Source of the DNA: a virus
Lineage: Duplodnaviria; Heunggongvirae; Uroviricota; Caudoviricetes
Strand: one strand, 5' to 3'
Virus record (IMG/VR): IMGVR_UViG_2690316227_000010
Coordinates: 1 to 5,114 of that record
DNA: 5,114 nucleotides
Position 1 is the first letter of the stretch. Each line of letters starts with the position of its first letter. Below the pieces are notes generated by a model. That model worked only from the letters and a program-made list of their open reading frames with translations, was not told the origin of the DNA and ran no database searches. Below, one piece after another: positions 1 through 5,114 of this stretch. A program made the position numbers and the translations under genes.

Positions 1-1332
1 CTGGCCCTGTCCAGACTGAAAGGGGAAGAAAAAGAGCGTGCCCGGCTGGGGTATGCGGCGGATGACCTTGGTTTTGTGGGGGATTCGTATCAGGAGGCGA
101 GACAGCGTTATATCAGTAATGCTCTGGAAGCCTGGCGTAATAACGAGGCGAACAAACCTAAATCCCGGGGTGGAAAATCAGAGACGGAAAAAGCGGAAGA
201 CAGTTTTTCCCGGCTACTGAAGCAGCAGAAAGAGCAACTGGCACTGGCGGGTCAGAATACAGAGCTGGCGAAGCTGAAGTACCAGACTGCGCAGGGCGAA
301 CTGAAAACCCTGACGGAGATGCAGAAGCAGGAACTGCTGCGTAACGCGGCCCTGATTGACCAGCAAAAAATCCGGGAACAGTTGCGATCCCGGGAAGAGA
401 CCCTGAAGAATGATAATGTGGCTGCGCGTGCATCAAATGAAGCCGAACTGCTGGGGTACGGGCAGGGAGAACGAGCCAGGGAACGCATGCGGGAGTTGCA
501 GCAGATCCGCGACAGCTTCCGCCAGAAGGATGCGGACCTTCAGTCTCAGTATCAGACCGGGGATATCAGTGAGGATTTTTACAGACAGGCACGGGCACAG
601 AACGCGCAGTATCTGAGCGAACGCCTTAAGGACCAGGCAGCCTTTTATGCCGAATCGGATGCGCAGCGTGCGGACTGGCAGAAAGGCTTGCAGGAGGGGC
701 TCAGTAACTGGTTGGATAATGCGTCCGATTACGCCTCACAGGCAGCACAGCTTGCGACGGAGGGTATCTCAGGGATGGTGAATAACATCACGGAGATGCT
801 GAACGGAAATAAAGTGGAATGGCGCAGCTGGGCCTCATCAGTGCTGCAGGAAATATCAAAAGTTCTTATGAATGCCGCGATTGTCAACGGAATTAAGACG
901 GCGGCAAACGGTATGTCCGGTGCGGGAGGATTTCTCGGCAGCATTGGTGACTGGCTGGGCGGGGCGGTGGCCAATGCAAAAGGCGGCGTGTATACCTCGG
1001 CAAACCTGAGTGCGTACAGCAACAGTATTGTGGATACGCCCACGTACTTTGCCTTTGCAAAAGGGGCCGGGCTGATGGGGGAGGCCGGACCTGAAGCCAT
1101 TATGCCCCTGACGCGGGCGGCGGATGGCTCGCTGGGTGTGCGCGCGGTGGGTAGTATGTACGGCAGTGCGGGCCTGGTGTATTCCCCGGTCTACCATATC
1201 GCCATTCAGAATGACGGGACTAATGGCCAGATAGGGCCGGAGGCGGCAGGCAGTCTTGTGCAGCTGATTGACCAGCGGGTGCAGGCGGTGATGCTGTCCA
1301 TGCGACGTGACGGAGGAATGCTGAGTGGCTGA
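1..1332 (+). CDS. H: Tail tape measure protein, C-terminal portion (5' partial; ORF enters from upstream of window)
   Basis: Frame 1 is open from base 1 to TGA at 1330-1332, so the GTG at 76 in the ORF track is not the true start. Translation is Q/E/R/K/A/L-rich and coiled-coil-like (e.g. LKQQKEQLALAGQNTELAKLKYQTAQGELKTL), followed by a Gly/Ala-rich hydrophobic C-terminal segment, typical of tape measure proteins. It sits immediately upstream of M-L-K-I-J homologues. Confidence 0.9.
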   Translation: MALSRLKGEEKERARLGYAADDLGFVGDSYQEARQRYISNALEAWRNNEANKPKSRGGKSETEKAEDSFSRLLKQQKEQLALAGQNTELAKLKYQTAQGELKTLTEMQKQELLRNAALIDQQKIREQLRSREETLKNDNVAARASNEAELLGYGQGERARERMRELQQIRDSFRQKDADLQSQYQTGDISEDFYRQARAQNAQYLSERLKDQAAFYAESDAQRADWQKGLQEGLSNWLDNASDYASQAAQLATEGISGMVNNITEMLNGNKVEWRSWASSVLQEISKVLMNAAIVNGIKTAANGMSGAGGFLGSIGDWLGGAVANAKGGVYTSANLSAYSNSIVDTPTYFAFAKGAGLMGEAGPEAIMPLTRAADGSLGVRAVGSMYGSAGLVYSPVYHIAIQNDGTNGQIGPEAAGSLVQLIDQRVQAVMLSMRRDGGMLSG

Positions 1333-1666
1333 GATAAAAACGCTGCATCTGGTCCCGCGTGAAGGGATGCAGGTGAGTGAGAAGCCGTCGGTGGTGAGGG
1401 TGCGGTTTGGTGACGGTTATGAACAGCGCCGCCCCACAGGGCTGAATCCTCAACTGAAGACGTTTCAGGCGGTGTTCCGGGTGACGGATGAGTCAACCCG
1501 GCGCTGGCTGGAAGAGTTTTTATCGTGGCATGGTGGTTACCGTGCCTTTTTGTGGCGACCGCCGAAACATAACCGGACGGTGAGGGTTGTGTGCCGTGAG
1601 TGGAGTGTCACGGATAATGCCCGGTACAGTGATTTCAGTTGCACGATAGAGCAGGTGGTGAACTGA
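1325..1666 (+). CDS. M: Minor tail protein M (tail tip assembly)
   Basis: 113-aa ORF, size typical of lambda gpM-family proteins, with the internal motif VRFGDGYEQR and a C-terminal EQVVN. GTG start at 1325 is preceded by GGAGG (1312-1316, 8-nt spacing) and overlaps the H stop. Alternative in-frame ATG at 1367 lacks proper SD spacing. Confidence 0.85.
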   Translation: MAEIKTLHLVPREGMQVSEKPSVVRVRFGDGYEQRRPTGLNPQLKTFQAVFRVTDESTRRWLEEFLSWHGGYRAFLWRPPKHNRTVRVVCREWSVTDNARYSDFSCTIEQVVN

Positions 1667-2364
1667 TGCAGGATATTCACGAAGAAAGTCTGAACGAGTC
1701 GGTTAAATCAGAGCAGTCACCGCGGGTGGTGCTCTGGGAAATTGACCTGACGGTGCAGGGCGGTGAGCGGTATTTTTTCTGTAATGAGCTGAATGAAAAA
1801 GGGGAGCCGGTCACCTGGCAGGGGCGGCAATATCAGGCATACCCGATTGACGGCAGCGGTTTTGAGATGAACGGGAAGGGCAGCAGTGCCAGACCGTCGC
1901 TGACGGTGTCCAATCTGTTTGGTCTGGTCACCGGGATGGCGGAGGACCTGCAGAGCCTGGTGGGGGCCACGGTGGTCCGCCGCCGGGTGTATGCCCGTTT
2001 TCTGGATGCGGTGAATTTTGTGGCGGGCAATCCGGAAGCGGACCCGGAGCAGGAGCTGAGCGACCGCTGGGTGGTGGAGCAGATGTCAGAGCTGACGGCC
2101 ATGACAGCCTCGTTTGTGCTGGCAACACCGACGGAGACGGACGGAGCGCTGTTTCCCGGTCGTATCATGCTGGCGAACACCTGTATGTGGACCTACCGCT
2201 CTGATGAGTGTGGTTACACGGGCGGGGCTGTGGCGGATGAGTTCGATAAACCCACCACGGATATCCGTAAGGACAGATGCAGCAAGTGCATGCGCGGGTG
2301 TGAGATGCGCGGCATGGTGGCTAATTTTGGCGGTTTCCTTTCCATCAATAAACTTTCGCAGTAA
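1666..2364 (+). CDS. L: Minor tail protein L (tail tip, Fe-S cluster-binding family)
   Basis: 232-aa ORF from ATG 1666 (MQDIHEESLNE...), which overlaps the M stop as TGATG. AGGTGG SD at 1653-1658. C-terminal cysteine cluster (C..DEC..DRCSKCMRGC) characteristic of gpL-family proteins. Ends FLSINKLSQ, TAA at 2362-2364. The ORF-track start at 1639 lies inside M and is rejected. Confidence 0.9.
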   Translation: MQDIHEESLNESVKSEQSPRVVLWEIDLTVQGGERYFFCNELNEKGEPVTWQGRQYQAYPIDGSGFEMNGKGSSARPSLTVSNLFGLVTGMAEDLQSLVGATVVRRRVYARFLDAVNFVAGNPEADPEQELSDRWVVEQMSELTAMTASFVLATPTETDGALFPGRIMLANTCMWTYRSDECGYTGGAVADEFDKPTTDIRKDRCSKCMRGCEMRGMVANFGGFLSINKLSQ

Positions 2365-2374
2365 ATCCTGTTTT

Positions 2375-3118
2375 ATGACACAGACTGAATCAGCGATTCT
2401 GGCGCATGCCCGGCGGTGTGCGCCTGCGGAGTCGTGCGGCTTCGTGGTGAGAACGCCGGAGGGGGAGCGGTATATCCCTTGTGTGAATATCTCTGCAGAG
2501 CCGGAGGCGTATTTTCGTATTGCACCGGAAGACTGGCTGCGGGCAGAGATGCAGGGGGAGATTGTGGCACTGGTCCACAGTCATCCCGGTGGTCTGCCCT
2601 GGCTGAGCGAGGCCGACCGGCGGCTGCAGATAAAAAGTGCACTGTCCTGGTGGCTGGTCTGCCGGGGGGACATTCATAAATTCCGCTGTGTGCCGCACCT
2701 GACGGGACGGCGCTTTGCGCACGGGGTGACGGACTGTTACACGCTGTTCCGGGATGCCTACCATCTGGCGGGAATTGATATGCCGGATTTTGAGCGTGAG
2801 GATGACTGGTGGCGCAACGGCCAGAACCTGTACCTGGACAATATGGCGGTCACCGGCTTTTACCGGGTGCCCCTGTCCTCTGCACAGGCGGGCGATATTC
2901 TGCTGTGCTGCTTTGGCGCATCGGTGGCCAATCATGCCGCCATATACTGCGGCAACGGTGAACTGCTTCACCATCTGCCTGAACAACTGAGTAAACGGGA
3001 GAGGTATTCCGAAAAATGGCAACGACGAACGCATTCAGCCTGGCGTCACCGCCACTGGCACGCATCTGCCTTCACGGGGATTTGCAACGATTTGGCCGCC
3101 GCCTCAGCCTGTACGTGA
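2375..3118 (+). CDS. K: Tail assembly protein K (N-terminal JAB/MPN metalloprotease-like domain plus C-terminal NlpC/P60-like domain)
   Basis: 247 aa from ATG 2375, 10 nt after the L stop. Contains the JAMM motif HSHPGGLPWLSEAD (H-x-H-x7-S-x2-D) and, downstream, NlpC/P60-like catalytic residues (Cys in VTDCYTLF, His in ANHAAIY, HH in LLHHLP). No strong SD, so the start is probably translationally coupled to L. The open frame upstream to 2114 overlaps L and is not coding. Confidence 0.85.
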   Translation: MTQTESAILAHARRCAPAESCGFVVRTPEGERYIPCVNISAEPEAYFRIAPEDWLRAEMQGEIVALVHSHPGGLPWLSEADRRLQIKSALSWWLVCRGDIHKFRCVPHLTGRRFAHGVTDCYTLFRDAYHLAGIDMPDFEREDDWWRNGQNLYLDNMAVTGFYRVPLSSAQAGDILLCCFGASVANHAAIYCGNGELLHHLPEQLSKRERYSEKWQRRTHSAWRHRHWHASAFTGICNDLAAASACT

Positions 3119-3696
3119 ACACGGCAGCGGAAGCCATCCGTGCCCTGTCGATGCAGATGCCGGGCTTTCGCCGTCAGATGAACGAAGGCTGGTACCAGAT
3201 ACGTATTCGCGGTGAGGACACGGCACCGGAGGCGGTGTACGCCCGTCTTCACGAACCTCTGGGTGAGGGGGCGGTCATCCATATTGTGCCGCGACTGGTC
3301 GGAGCCGGAAAGGGCGGACTGCAGATTGTGCTGGGGGCGGCGGCCATCGTGGGGTCGTTCTTCACGGCCGGGGCATCAATGGCGTTATGGGGTTCAGCCC
3401 TGGCAGCCGGTGGTTTTTCTGCCACCACGATGCTGTTTTCACTGGGGGCTAGCATGATACTGGGCGGTGTGGCCCAGATGCTGGCACCGAAGGCAAAAAC
3501 ACCGGATTACCGCGCAACGGATAACGGTAAACAGAACACGTATTTTTCCTCACTGGACAATATGATTGCCCAGGGTAACCCGATGCCGGTGCCTTATGGT
3601 GAAATGCTGGTTGGTTCACGACGGATATCCCAGGACATCAGTACCCGTGATGAAGGCGGTGGCGGAAAGGTTGTGGTTATCGGGCGGCAGGGGTAA
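3016..3696 (+). CDS. I: Tail assembly protein I (N-terminal ubiquitin-like beta-grasp domain, Gly-rich hydrophobic C-terminal region)
   Basis: 226 aa from ATG 3016 with GGGAGAGG upstream (2997-3004). Starts 103 nt inside the 3' end of K in a different frame, the overlap architecture typical of lambda-like K/I pairs. N-terminus MATTNAFSLASPPLARICLHGDLQRFGRR..., then GxxxG-rich hydrophobic stretch (GAAAIVGSFFTAGASMALWGSALAAGG...). TAA at 3694-3696. Confidence 0.88.
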   Translation: MATTNAFSLASPPLARICLHGDLQRFGRRLSLYVNTAAEAIRALSMQMPGFRRQMNEGWYQIRIRGEDTAPEAVYARLHEPLGEGAVIHIVPRLVGAGKGGLQIVLGAAAIVGSFFTAGASMALWGSALAAGGFSATTMLFSLGASMILGGVAQMLAPKAKTPDYRATDNGKQNTYFSSLDNMIAQGNPMPVPYGEMLVGSRRISQDISTRDEGGGGKVVVIGRQG

Positions 3697-3728
3697 AAAG
3701 AATAAAACAATCCCGCAGAGTTGCGGGG
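3697..3728 (-). terminator. Candidate Rho-independent terminator oriented for the minus strand
   Basis: Hairpin CCCGCA (3712-3717) / TGCGGG (3722-3727), loop GAGT. On the minus strand it is followed by TTGTTTTATTCTTTTT (complement of 3695-3710). On the + strand the hairpin is followed by GACAGACAAAG (not U-rich), so it is minus-oriented. Abuts the I stop codon. Confidence 0.4.
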
Positions 3729-3739
3729 ACAGACAAAGA

Positions 3740-3749
3740 TTAACGTTAA
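3740..3749. repeat. Perfect 10-bp palindrome TTAACGTTAA; ATTAACG recurs at 3786-3792
   Basis: TTAACGTTAA equals its own reverse complement. Sits immediately before the AAGGAG at 3748-3753. Possible protein-binding site, or chance in AT-rich DNA. Confidence 0.15.
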
Positions 3750-3759
3750 GGAGTTATTT

Positions 3760-3864
3760 TTGTTTCTGGTGCTCGGGCAAAAAAACATTAACGCAGAGAA
3801 ATTATTAGCACCACAGTCAGTTTGTGAAAATGTGAAGATATTCAGAAGTTTTATTCCGTCATGA
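3760..3864 (+). CDS. Hypothetical small ORF (34 codons, TTG start) in the I-J spacer; speculative
   Basis: AAGGAG (3748-3753) lies 6 nt before TTG 3760. Frame is open to TGA 3862-3864 and would encode (M)FLVLGQKNINAEKLLAPQSVCENVKIFRSFIPS. Ends 2 nt before the + strand terminator hairpin. No homology assessable; TTG start and short length make this weak. Confidence 0.15.
   Translation: MFLVLGQKNINAEKLLAPQSVCENVKIFRSFIPS
3831..3846. promoter_or_regulatory. CRP-like motif TGTGA-N6-TCAGA (9/10 match to the TGTGA-N6-TCACA core)
   Basis: tgtgaagatattcaga at 3831-3846, flanked by AAAA on the left. An additional TGTGAA copy lies at 3823-3828. A single match in AT-rich DNA, so it could be chance. 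Confidence 0.2.
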
Positions 3865-3866
3865 TG

Positions 3867-3897
3867 CAGGCATCCTCCGGGATGCCTGTTGTTTTTG
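3867..3897 (+). terminator. Candidate Rho-independent terminator (+ strand): 9-bp stem, 4-nt loop, U-rich tail
   Basis: CAGGCATCC (3867-3875) pairs perfectly with GGATGCCTG (3880-3888), loop TCCG, followed by TTGTTTTTGTG (3889-3899). On the minus strand the downstream sequence is not U-rich, so the orientation is +. Lies 33 nt upstream of the J ATG. Confidence 0.55.
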
Positions 3898-3918
3898 TGC
3901 GTAACAGTTATCACAGTA

Positions 3919-3927
3919 AAGGGTGAG
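3919..3927 (+). promoter_or_regulatory. Shine-Dalgarno region for J
   Basis: AAGGGTGAG located 3-7 nt upstream of ATG 3931. Confidence 0.6.
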
Positions 3928-3930
3928 ACA

Positions 3931-5114
3931 ATGGGCAAAGGTGGCGGCAAGGCGCACACACCGCGCGAGGCGAAGGACAATCTCAAATCCACGCAGATGA
4001 TGAGTGTGATTGATGCGATTGGTGAGGGACCGATAGAAGGCCCGGTGAAGGGGCTGCAGAGTATCCTGGTGAACAAAACCCCGCTGACGGACACGGACGG
4101 CAATCCTGTGATACACGGTGTGACCGCGGTCTGGCGCGCCGGGGAGCAGGAGCAGACACCACCGGAAGGCTTTGAGTCCTCCGGAGCTGAAACCGGACTG
4201 GGCGTGGAAGTGACGAAGGCAAAGCCGGTAACGCGCACCATTACGTCCGCGAACATTGACCGCCTGCGGGTTACCTTCGGGGTGCAGTCACTGGTGGAGA
4301 CCACCTCAAAGGGTGACCGTAACCCGACGTCTGTCCGCCTGCTGATTCAGCTTGAGCGTGGTGGTAAATGGATGACGGAAAAGGATGTCACCATTAACGG
4401 CAAGACCACCTCACAGTACCTGGCGTCGGTGATTCTGGATAATCTGCCTCCCCGTCCTTTTAACATCCGGATGGTCCGGGAGACAGCGGACAGCACCACG
4501 GACCAGTTGCAGAATAAGACGCTCTGGTCGTCATACACCGAAATCATCGATGTGAAACAGTGCTACCCGAACACGGCGATTGTGGGGCTGCAGGTGGATG
4601 CGGAGCAGTTTGGCGGTCAGCAGATGACGGTGAACTACCATATCCGCGGTCGCATCATCCAGGTACCGTCAAACTATGACCCGGAAAAACGCACTTACAG
4701 CGGCATCTGGGACGGCAGCCTGAAACCGGCATACAGCAACAACCCTGCCTGGTGCCTGTGGGACATGCTGACTCACCCGCGCTACGGCATGGGAAAACGT
4801 CTGGGGGCGGCGGATGTGGACAAGTGGGCGCTGTATGCCATCGGGCAGTACTGCGACCAGATGGTGCCGGATGGCTTCGGGGGCACCGAGCCGCGGATGA
4901 CCTTCAATGCGTACCTGGCACAACAGCGTAAGGCGTGGGATGTTCTCAGTGATTTCTGCTCGGCGATGCGCTGTATGCCGGTATGGAACGGTCAGACGCT
5001 GACGTTCGTTCAGGACCGCCCGTCGGATGTGGTGTGGCCGTACACCAACAGCGATGTGGTGGTGGATGATAACGGCGTGGGGTTTCGCTACAGCTTCAGC
5101 GCCCTGAAGGACCG
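3931..5114 (+). CDS. J: Host specificity protein J / central tail fibre (tail tip), N-terminal ~394 aa; 3' partial, continues past window end
   Basis: Frame 1 is open from ATG 3931 to the window end with no stop, so it is missing from the ORF track. SD AAGGGTGAG at 3919-3927. N-terminus MGKGGGKAHTPREAKDNLKSTQMMSVIDAIGEGPIEGPV... and later ...TLWSSYTEIIDVKQCYPNTAIVGLQVD...AWCLWDMLTHPRYGMGKRLG... are characteristic of lambda-J-family proteins. Position directly after I agrees. Confidence 0.9.
   Translation, partial: MGKGGGKAHTPREAKDNLKSTQMMSVIDAIGEGPIEGPVKGLQSILVNKTPLTDTDGNPVIHGVTAVWRAGEQEQTPPEGFESSGAETGLGVEVTKAKPVTRTITSANIDRLRVTFGVQSLVETTSKGDRNPTSVRLLIQLERGGKWMTEKDVTINGKTTSQYLASVILDNLPPRPFNIRMVRETADSTTDQLQNKTLWSSYTEIIDVKQCYPNTAIVGLQVDAEQFGGQQMTVNYHIRGRIIQVPSNYDPEKRTYSGIWDGSLKPAYSNNPAWCLWDMLTHPRYGMGKRLGAADVDKWALYAIGQYCDQMVPDGFGGTEPRMTFNAYLAQQRKAWDVLSDFCSAMRCMPVWNGQTLTFVQDRPSDVVWPYTNSDVVVDDNGVGFRYSFSALKD

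Follow-up and report, generated by a model that had tools for sequence, protein, structure and literature searches.

An inserted cassette between tail genes I and J

We analysed a stretch of 5,114 nucleotides (nt) from a tailed phage (Caudoviricetes; IMG/VR record IMGVR_UViG_2690316227_000010, positions 1 to 5,114), called the window throughout, and in it the spacer between genes I and J, which we read as carrying a gene for a small RNA (sRNA). The window is a lambda-like tail module and comprises the end of H, the genes M, L, K and I, and the start of J. The upstream genes are closely packed: H and M overlap, the M/L overlap is 1 nt, L and K are separated by 10 nt (2365-2374), and K and I overlap by 103 nt, the same as in lambda. 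An earlier note, made from the letters of this DNA alone, had drawn attention to the 234-nt gap that stands beside these genes, with the end of I at 3696 and the start of J at 3931, and had described it as AT-rich. The windowed computation of G+C content (GC) bears this out, giving 40.2% for the spacer and 36.1% for its part 3697-3854, compared to 58.2% for the remainder of the window; the spacer is the lowest-GC stretch of 234-nt length within the window. The genes and the parts of the spacer are as follows.

3016-3696, plus strand: I, tail assembly gene.
3697-3930: I-J intergenic spacer, 234 nt, 40% GC; lambda-type junctions measure 59-60 nt.
3697-3854, minus strand: inserted cassette (a 'reverse moron') consisting of terminator, sRNA body, promoter and a conserved upstream block; boundaries approximate, within 20 nt either way.
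3866-3889, plus strand: hairpin just upstream of J, then a T-run (to 3898); free energy (dG) -19.6 kcal/mol, z -4.2, 0 of 200 shuffles as stable.
3931-5114, plus strand: 5' part of J, the tail-tip/host-specificity gene (ATG at 3931), continuing past the window end.

Junctions between I and J were sampled from loci encoding a relative of protein I, together with loci found by a spacer motif, and the gap was measured in 220 loci, corresponding to 80 distinct sequences. The gap is 59-60 nt in lambda and its close relatives (60 nt in lambda itself, in agreement with the earlier note) and 51 nt in N15. In the lineage of the window it spans 233-260 nt, with longer forms of 295-344, 421-425, 714, 851, 914 and 1599 nt. 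Wherever the survey found the cassette the gap was at least 233 nt, and in all finds the cassette lay at the I-J junction only and in one orientation only. Besides the hairpin (ACCGCC...GGCGGT), a run of T and the ribosome-binding site of J, there is little in the lambda spacer. Since an equivalent hairpin precedes J in lambda, in N15 (annotated stem_loop) and in HK97 (annotated terminator), we regard the hairpin at 3866-3889 as an ancestral element of the junction that lies outside the insert; its stem carries a compensatory T:A to C:G change among relatives. The plus-oriented terminator that had been placed at the right edge is present and stable as a hairpin, but it does not bound the insert. 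The right edge of the cassette is instead marked by relatives with a different J-proximal sequence, which diverge right after TTTTAT (3849-3854). What has been added is thus the left-hand part of the spacer, ~155 nt from 3697 to about 3854.

Set against junctions of the lambda type, the spacer is an insertion; not all lambda-like phages have it, and each of its two hairpins has a stable fold. The insertion, the foreign base composition (36% GC in the cassette, compared to 58%) and the promoter and terminator of its own give the cassette the architecture of a moron, and the moron-like insertion put forward in the earlier note is upheld. Extra DNA between adjacent genes, a promoter and terminator of its own, and distinct GC are all seen here; a protein-coding cargo is not. 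Among the cargoes that the earlier note had suggested was a small RNA, and the cargo is an sRNA gene by family homology, as described below. In HK97 the I-J junction is annotated with a moron and a 'reverse moron', which makes it an established insertion point.

Several of the longer gaps hold other cargo. Gaps of 851 nt (loci L050:137-987, L071, L062, L083, L093 and L100) and a 714-nt gap from Citrobacter (L031:2149-2862) carry a reverse-oriented sodC, coding for a Cu/Zn superoxide dismutase (Pfam Sod_Cu, E 3.9e-32), with a terminator of its own. In the 851-nt forms the sRNA body and its terminator are kept beside I, and sodC replaces the promoter block of the sRNA, with the break at about 3796. 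The 1599-nt gap (L162) has an IS3-family insertion sequence downstream of the sRNA cassette, recognized by an HTH_Tnp_1 orfA and a 248-residue orfB-like frame. The gaps of 336-344 and 421-425 nt (for example L010:1130-1465, L209 and L136), which are common variants, keep the sRNA cassette through TTTTAT, and their J-proximal hairpin region is replaced by ~180-270 nt of unrelated sequence with another GC-rich hairpin (AAAACCCCGGTATCTGCTGATACCGGGTTT in the 336-nt form). In Sp15-type spacers (for example L003:992-1075, minus strand) a 7-nt tandem repeat, CAGACAT, stands in variable copy number just 5' of the J ribosome-binding site, which makes the J-proximal segment 85, 92 or 100 nt long; the variant of the window is without the repeat. 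With RNA cargo, sodC, insertion sequences and HK97-type protein morons all found there, the I-J junction is a recurrent insertion site.

Some entries of the survey come from unexpected sources. Junctions matching the lambda-type 60-nt spacer were found in unrelated assemblies (L013-L026, L028 and others, among them Pseudomonas, Shewanella, Bradyrhizobium and Paenibacillus); some of these contigs are ~48.5 kb long, and they look like contamination of the assemblies with lambda DNA. The loci L010 ('Streptomyces') and L050 ('Clostridiales MAG', that is, a metagenome-assembled genome) carry Escherichia coli (E. coli) prophage sequence.

A predicted minus-strand transcription unit of the EcOnc22/23/24 family

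The cassette contains the predicted parts of a complete transcription unit on the minus strand. They are listed here in the direction of transcription; CLASH stands for the cross-linking, ligation and sequencing of RNA hybrids.

3831-3846: CRP-like site, TGTGA-N6-TCAGA; centre at -44.5 from the predicted start.
3823-3828, minus strand: -35 hexamer TTCACA, with a 16-nt spacer to the -10 hexamer (promoter scan).
3801-3806, minus strand: -10 hexamer AATAAT, which is TATAAT in most relatives (promoter scan).
3704-3794, minus strand: predicted sRNA of ~91 nt, homologue of EcOnc22/23/24; the 5' end, G3794, is placed from the -10 box and the 3' end lies in the U-tract.
3753-3767, minus strand: five consecutive A-R-N triplets (AGA AAC AAA AAU AAC), a motif of the Hfq-binding type (sequence inspection).
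3736-3761, minus strand: conserved core AAAAAUAACUCCUUAACGUUAAUCUU, the likely pairing region, which includes CUCCUU; the same segment of EcOnc22/23 forms CLASH chimeras.
3712-3727, minus strand: intrinsic terminator hairpin (CCCGCA/UGCGGG, loop ACUC); dG -10.9 kcal/mol, z -3.8, 0 of 200 shuffles as stable.
3703-3711, minus strand: U-tract AUUGUUUUA, interrupted by a G (C3709 on the plus strand).

The sigma-70-type promoter, which was absent from the list in the earlier note, is directed at the left-hand terminator. In 55 of the 57 distinct cassettes the best minus-strand match occupies one and the same position, and 26 of these read TTCACA-16-TATAAT, agreeing with the consensus at 11 of 12 positions. 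On the plus strand no promoter was found in the conserved block, either by scan or by inspection. The terminator itself (3727 to 3712, followed by its T-run) is the minus-oriented terminator that had already been recognized at the left edge. From 5' to 3' the predicted RNA has a U-rich part, the (ARN)5 stretch, the core AAAAAUAACUCCUUAACGUUAAUCUU, and a 3' hairpin with U tail, which is the build of an Hfq-binding sRNA; the A-R-N motif is used here as defined for Hfq (PMC4104026). Of the elements of the Hfq module, the window has the hairpin, the UAAUCUUUGUCUGU that precedes it and (ARN)5, but the tail reads UUGUUUU, compared to six or more consecutive U in nearly all other variants surveyed. 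Two further motifs of the earlier note take on another meaning in this setting. The plus-strand AAGGAG (3748-3753), read as a Shine-Dalgarno sequence, is there, but it is better taken as the complement of CUCCUU in the RNA and not as the ribosome-binding site of a conserved gene; the palindrome TTAACGTTAA (3740-3749) is likewise present, but it is specific to the variant of the window and is not conserved.

The identity of the RNA follows from three Hfq-bound RNAs of E. coli O157 Sakai, EcOnc22, EcOnc23 and EcOnc24, reported from prophages Sp15, Sp14 and Sp11 (Tree et al. 2014; PMC4104026, Table S2). Their coordinates map between I and J in each of these three prophages, antisense to the late genes, and these spacers align with that of the window throughout. 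Table S2 uses the first genome version, and a shift of +128 puts the probes of EcOnc04, 07, 38 and 22 onto the peaks; the EcOnc coordinates are 128 nt lower than those of NC_002695.2 over at least 1.79-3.31 Mb, and used unshifted they would misplace EcOnc22-24 to the other side of the spacer. The strand is fixed by CLASH reads (PMC5286369) such as GCCTGAAAAATAACTCCATAACGTTAATCTTCATCGTTCTCTCCCGCAGC, which are the reverse complement of the late-sense spacer, and one chimera with ...ACTCTGCGGGATTTTTTT sets the 3' end at the U-tract. The peak of EcOnc22 in Hfq-CRAC (UV cross-linking and analysis of cDNA) corresponds to ~3722-3788 on the minus strand of the window, inside the predicted transcript that runs from 3794 to ~3704. 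EcOnc22 gives a Northern band of ~85 nt, compared to the 91 nt predicted here, and is listed as 'Destabilised' in an hfq deletion (PMC4104026, Table S2). These homologues of the window's RNA are made in uninduced lysogens, are crosslinked to Hfq, and are recovered in RNase E-CLASH chimeras (PMC4104026, PMC5286369).

We built a covariance model on 20 members of the family, leaving out the window. It gives a full-length match to 3703-3794 (minus strand) with 61.2 bits and E about 8.5e-10, and none in the regions of lambda, HK97 and N15 that were searched. The RNA of the window and EcOnc22 are 68% identical (70 of 103 aligned columns), and a 30-nt core is almost the same in the two. Membership in the family is supported by a place between I and J in antisense to the late genes, by similarity in sequence and structure, and by a predicted promoter and terminator of its own that define an RNA of the ~85-nt class. 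The literature has known the RNA family since 2014 as a table entry with a Northern band, and the window copy is a new member of it. On EcOnc22-24, beyond that entry, we found only a 2021 review, and no account of the I-J location, the promoter or the diversity; a literature search linking sRNAs with these tail genes returned nothing. In supplementary file 4 of PMC5286369 the EcOnc22 interval (2902729-2902766) is labelled 'asxR2'; the RNA is unrelated to AsxR (EcOnc02), and the label looks provisional or mistaken.

Rfam has no family at threshold anywhere in the window. The weak matches to STnc100 and Hrs1 rest mainly on terminator hairpins, and both were set aside. The STnc100 match (20.2 bits with a gathering threshold of 47, E 0.036; plus strand, 3817-3898) aligns the ends of the model and skips 127 central positions. 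STnc100 overlaps the EcOnc27 region downstream of stx2B, and the match is probably mere hairpin similarity.

Among 47 distinct predicted RNAs of the family, the common features are a GCGUUA start, a U-run, an A-R-N-rich stretch, CUCC[U/A]U and UUAAUCUU. The terminator stems are invariant (CCCGCAG/CUGCGGG) and the loops variable, with a run of at least six U in nearly all; the terminator stem of L141 carries a compensatory change (CCCACAG/CTGTGGG). A conserved stem in the 5' part was considered and rejected: RNAalifold supports the terminator only, and the helix in the minimum-energy fold of the window's RNA is not conserved.

In Sakai, the J-proximal spacer of Sp9 has 98.7% identity to that of the window. 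In Sp9 (L001:2110-2734), as in EDL933 (L002:1110-1734), K and I are missing and a truncated L-like frame runs into the spacer; J of EDL933 is annotated as frameshifted, and the cassette has thus persisted although the tail module around it is defective. More widely, the spacer matches 147 phage records, mostly of Shiga toxin (Stx)-converting phages, and is found in 1842 of 5426 complete E. coli genomes (about a third), in up to 11 places per genome.

The CRP-like motif, which the earlier note had also listed, is present just upstream of the -35 hexamer. It agrees with TGTGA-N6-TCACA at 9 of the 10 half-site bases and is the only match in the window at up to one mismatch; with 0.18 such matches expected by chance, the match alone is not significant. 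Of the long spacers selected on protein I only, 47 are distinct; 41 of them have unchanged half-sites, TGTGA and TCAGA, around a middle of 6 nt that varies, and the other six are sodC forms. Invariant half-sites around a variable middle would suit a dimeric DNA-binding protein such as CRP. This pattern suggests control of the sRNA promoter by CRP with cyclic AMP (cAMP).

Mode of action and rival explanations

We propose that the I-J gap holds a small non-coding gene, inserted in reverse among the late tail genes of a lambdoid prophage of E. coli, and that its product is an Hfq-dependent sRNA that acts mainly in trans; we give this reading a probability of roughly 0.78. Transcription would start near G3794 from the minus-strand promoter (TTCACA, 16 nt, AATAAT) and would stop near 3704 at the intrinsic terminator (3727-3712) and its U-tract, yielding an RNA of ~91 nt. 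The window copy would be made as its homologues are, independently of late transcription. Bound to Hfq, the RNA would use its 5' and central parts, which hold the conserved core as well as the variable segments, to pair with mRNAs of the host or of prophages, and the differences in these parts between variants would give them different sets of targets. A secondary effect is conceivable from its position: between I and J the late mRNA is matched by the RNA without a mismatch, and the sRNA promoter opposes late transcription, so that the RNA may also affect this mRNA during lytic growth.

One candidate partner is yjbJ. The Sp15/Sp14 variant and its CLASH partner inside yjbJ (codons 44-57) form an extended duplex of -30.9 kcal/mol, compared to -16.4 +/- 3.7 for shuffled sRNAs, of which 1 in 500 reaches this value. 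The pairing rests on two or three CLASH reads and was not discussed by the authors of PMC5286369.

A number of observations weigh against the trans-acting sRNA as proposed. The duplex of the window's own variant with yjbJ is weaker, at -23.4 kcal/mol, a value equalled or bettered by 7% of shuffles; this would fit variant-specific target sets. CLASH hybrids are few for the family as a whole, with 1-2 reads each (PMC5286369), and the 2021 review lists the target of the family as unknown. The expression and Hfq data belong to the Sp15/14/11 form only, which has diverged from the RNA of the window. The Sp9 RNA differs from that of the window at a single base, in the U-tract, yet it is not among the published Hfq peaks (PMC4104026). 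Reads of the Sp9 type were not found in the CLASH hybrid tables either; as these tables list hybrids only, the lack of reads for this variant says little. The G that interrupts the U-tract is seen in no other surveyed spacer, nearly all others having at least six consecutive U, and the interruption (UUGUUUU in place of U7) may weaken termination and the binding of Hfq alike. The start site is a prediction from the -10 box, and in the family alignment no covariation support was found for structure beyond the terminator. Finally, the centre of the CRP-like site is at -44.5 from this predicted start, where the canonical class II position is -41.5, which makes CRP control a lead and not a finding.

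The alternative that fares best, though we consider it unlikely, accepts the sRNA gene and assigns it another main target: the RNA would act mainly in cis, by antisense pairing or promoter collision, and tune the cleavage or stability of the mRNA at the I-J junction, and through this the I:J ratio or leaky J expression, either in the prophage that carries it or in relatives that share the cell or superinfect it. Perfect complementarity to ~91 nt of the late transcript, the confinement of the cassette to one junction and one orientation, and the presence of up to 11 related copies in one genome all speak for it. The homologues, however, are plentiful in uninduced lysogens, which contain little late mRNA, and their Hfq dependence is typical of trans-acting sRNAs. 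The paired region, moreover, ends ~135 nt upstream of the J ribosome-binding site. Pairing of the sRNA with its own J ribosome-binding region was tried and discarded, the cognate duplexes (-23.1, -27.0 and -23.1 kcal/mol) being no better than non-cognate or shuffled ones.

A more elaborate proposal, which we hold to be a long shot, makes the RNA a CRP-controlled, hypervariable antisense sRNA that acts between co-resident prophages on the I-J tail mRNA, or on host stress genes such as yjbJ. If true, it would amount to RNA-based competition between prophages, or to host tuning, from within a structural operon, with variant pairing regions and up to 11 copies per genome.

The cassette might also be a decaying remnant without a function of its own, for instance what is left of the 3' part of a bigger reverse moron like sodC, or it might do no more than join tail modules as a recombination linker. 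The sodC relatives with 851-nt gaps do share the left ~100 nt (terminator and RNA body), with sodC in place of the promoter; there are mosaic break points inside the spacer, and the U-tract of the window copy is mutated. We find this explanation improbable, however, in view of a near-consensus promoter that keeps its position in nearly all distinct variants, CRP-like half-sites that stay invariant around a variable middle, a discrete Hfq-dependent RNA from the homologues, and the very wide, multicopy spread of the family.

A candidate for a protein lies on the plus strand.

3760-3864, plus strand: 34-codon frame starting with TTG, 6 nt behind AAGGAG; judged non-coding.

The spacing to the Shine-Dalgarno-like sequence, the start codon, the frame and a downstream hairpin are all in the window, a 39-41-codon ATG frame with the same stop occurs in some relatives, and an antisense RNA across a ribosome-binding site is the layout of a type I toxin-antitoxin pair; the frame could then be a protein-coding moron or a toxin, with the hairpin at 3866-3889 as its terminator and the minus-strand RNA as antitoxin. 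Among the 42 distinct spacers of the 233-260-nt class, however, 24 have frame-shifting indels and 12 keep at least 30 codons to the same stop. Variability is 0.44, 0.61 and 0.46 at codon positions 1, 2 and 3; it peaks at position 2, where a coding sequence would peak at position 3, and there is no coding periodicity. The frame has no Pfam match, the 34-residue peptide shows no membrane-spanning hydrophobic stretch on inspection of its sequence, and the hairpin belongs to the older junction. A small protein or type I toxin on this strand was rejected on the poor conservation of the frame and the lack of codon periodicity, no conserved reading frame was found on either strand of the cassette, and we rate this explanation as very improbable.

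Relation to known systems

The HK97 morons gp22 and gp23 (NC_002167; Juhala et al. 2000) resemble the arrangement in the window in being extra DNA between I and J, in having a reverse unit with a terminator of its own, and in the plus-strand hairpin before J. They differ in that their annotation is that of protein genes and in that no similarity to the cassette can be detected; the cargo of the cassette is an RNA of ~91 nt. The prophage sodC reverse moron shares the insertion site and the orientation and keeps the terminator and RNA body next to I, but it consists of a gene for a 175-residue Cu/Zn superoxide dismutase with a terminator of its own and is without the promoter block of the cassette.

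Enterohaemorrhagic E. coli (EHEC) carries many near-identical lambdoid prophages, and their sRNAs (AgvB, AsxR, StxS and HnrS) are emerging as regulators of virulence and of prophages. Like the RNA of the window, HnrS (EcOnc10-12), AgvB, AsxR and StxS are short, multicopy, prophage-borne and Hfq-associated, lie in or beside late genes, and are expressed in lysogens. They have other loci and other sequences, however; AgvB and AsxR stand downstream of PR', and validated targets are known (hha, GcvB, FnrS). HnrS was considered as the identity of the RNA, being a multicopy late-gene sRNA, and was rejected: its Sp9 copy, at 1779522, is ~15 kb from the I-J gap. The present family is as widespread as these four, often multicopy, and enriched in Stx phages. 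It can now be placed between I and J, as a reversed cassette that combines a conserved promoter with a candidate CRP site and a pairing region that varies. Another prophage sRNA will not surprise specialists, but its spread and copy number make the family reasonable to follow up.

The closest comparison is with EcOnc22/23/24 themselves. The RNA of the window has 12 additional nt in its 5' part, a terminator loop of 4 nt where the EcOnc loop has 11 nt, and an interrupted U-tract. It shares with them the location in the I-J gap, the antisense orientation, the layout of promoter and terminator, and an almost identical core, AAAAAUAACUCC[A/U]UAACGUUAAUCUU.

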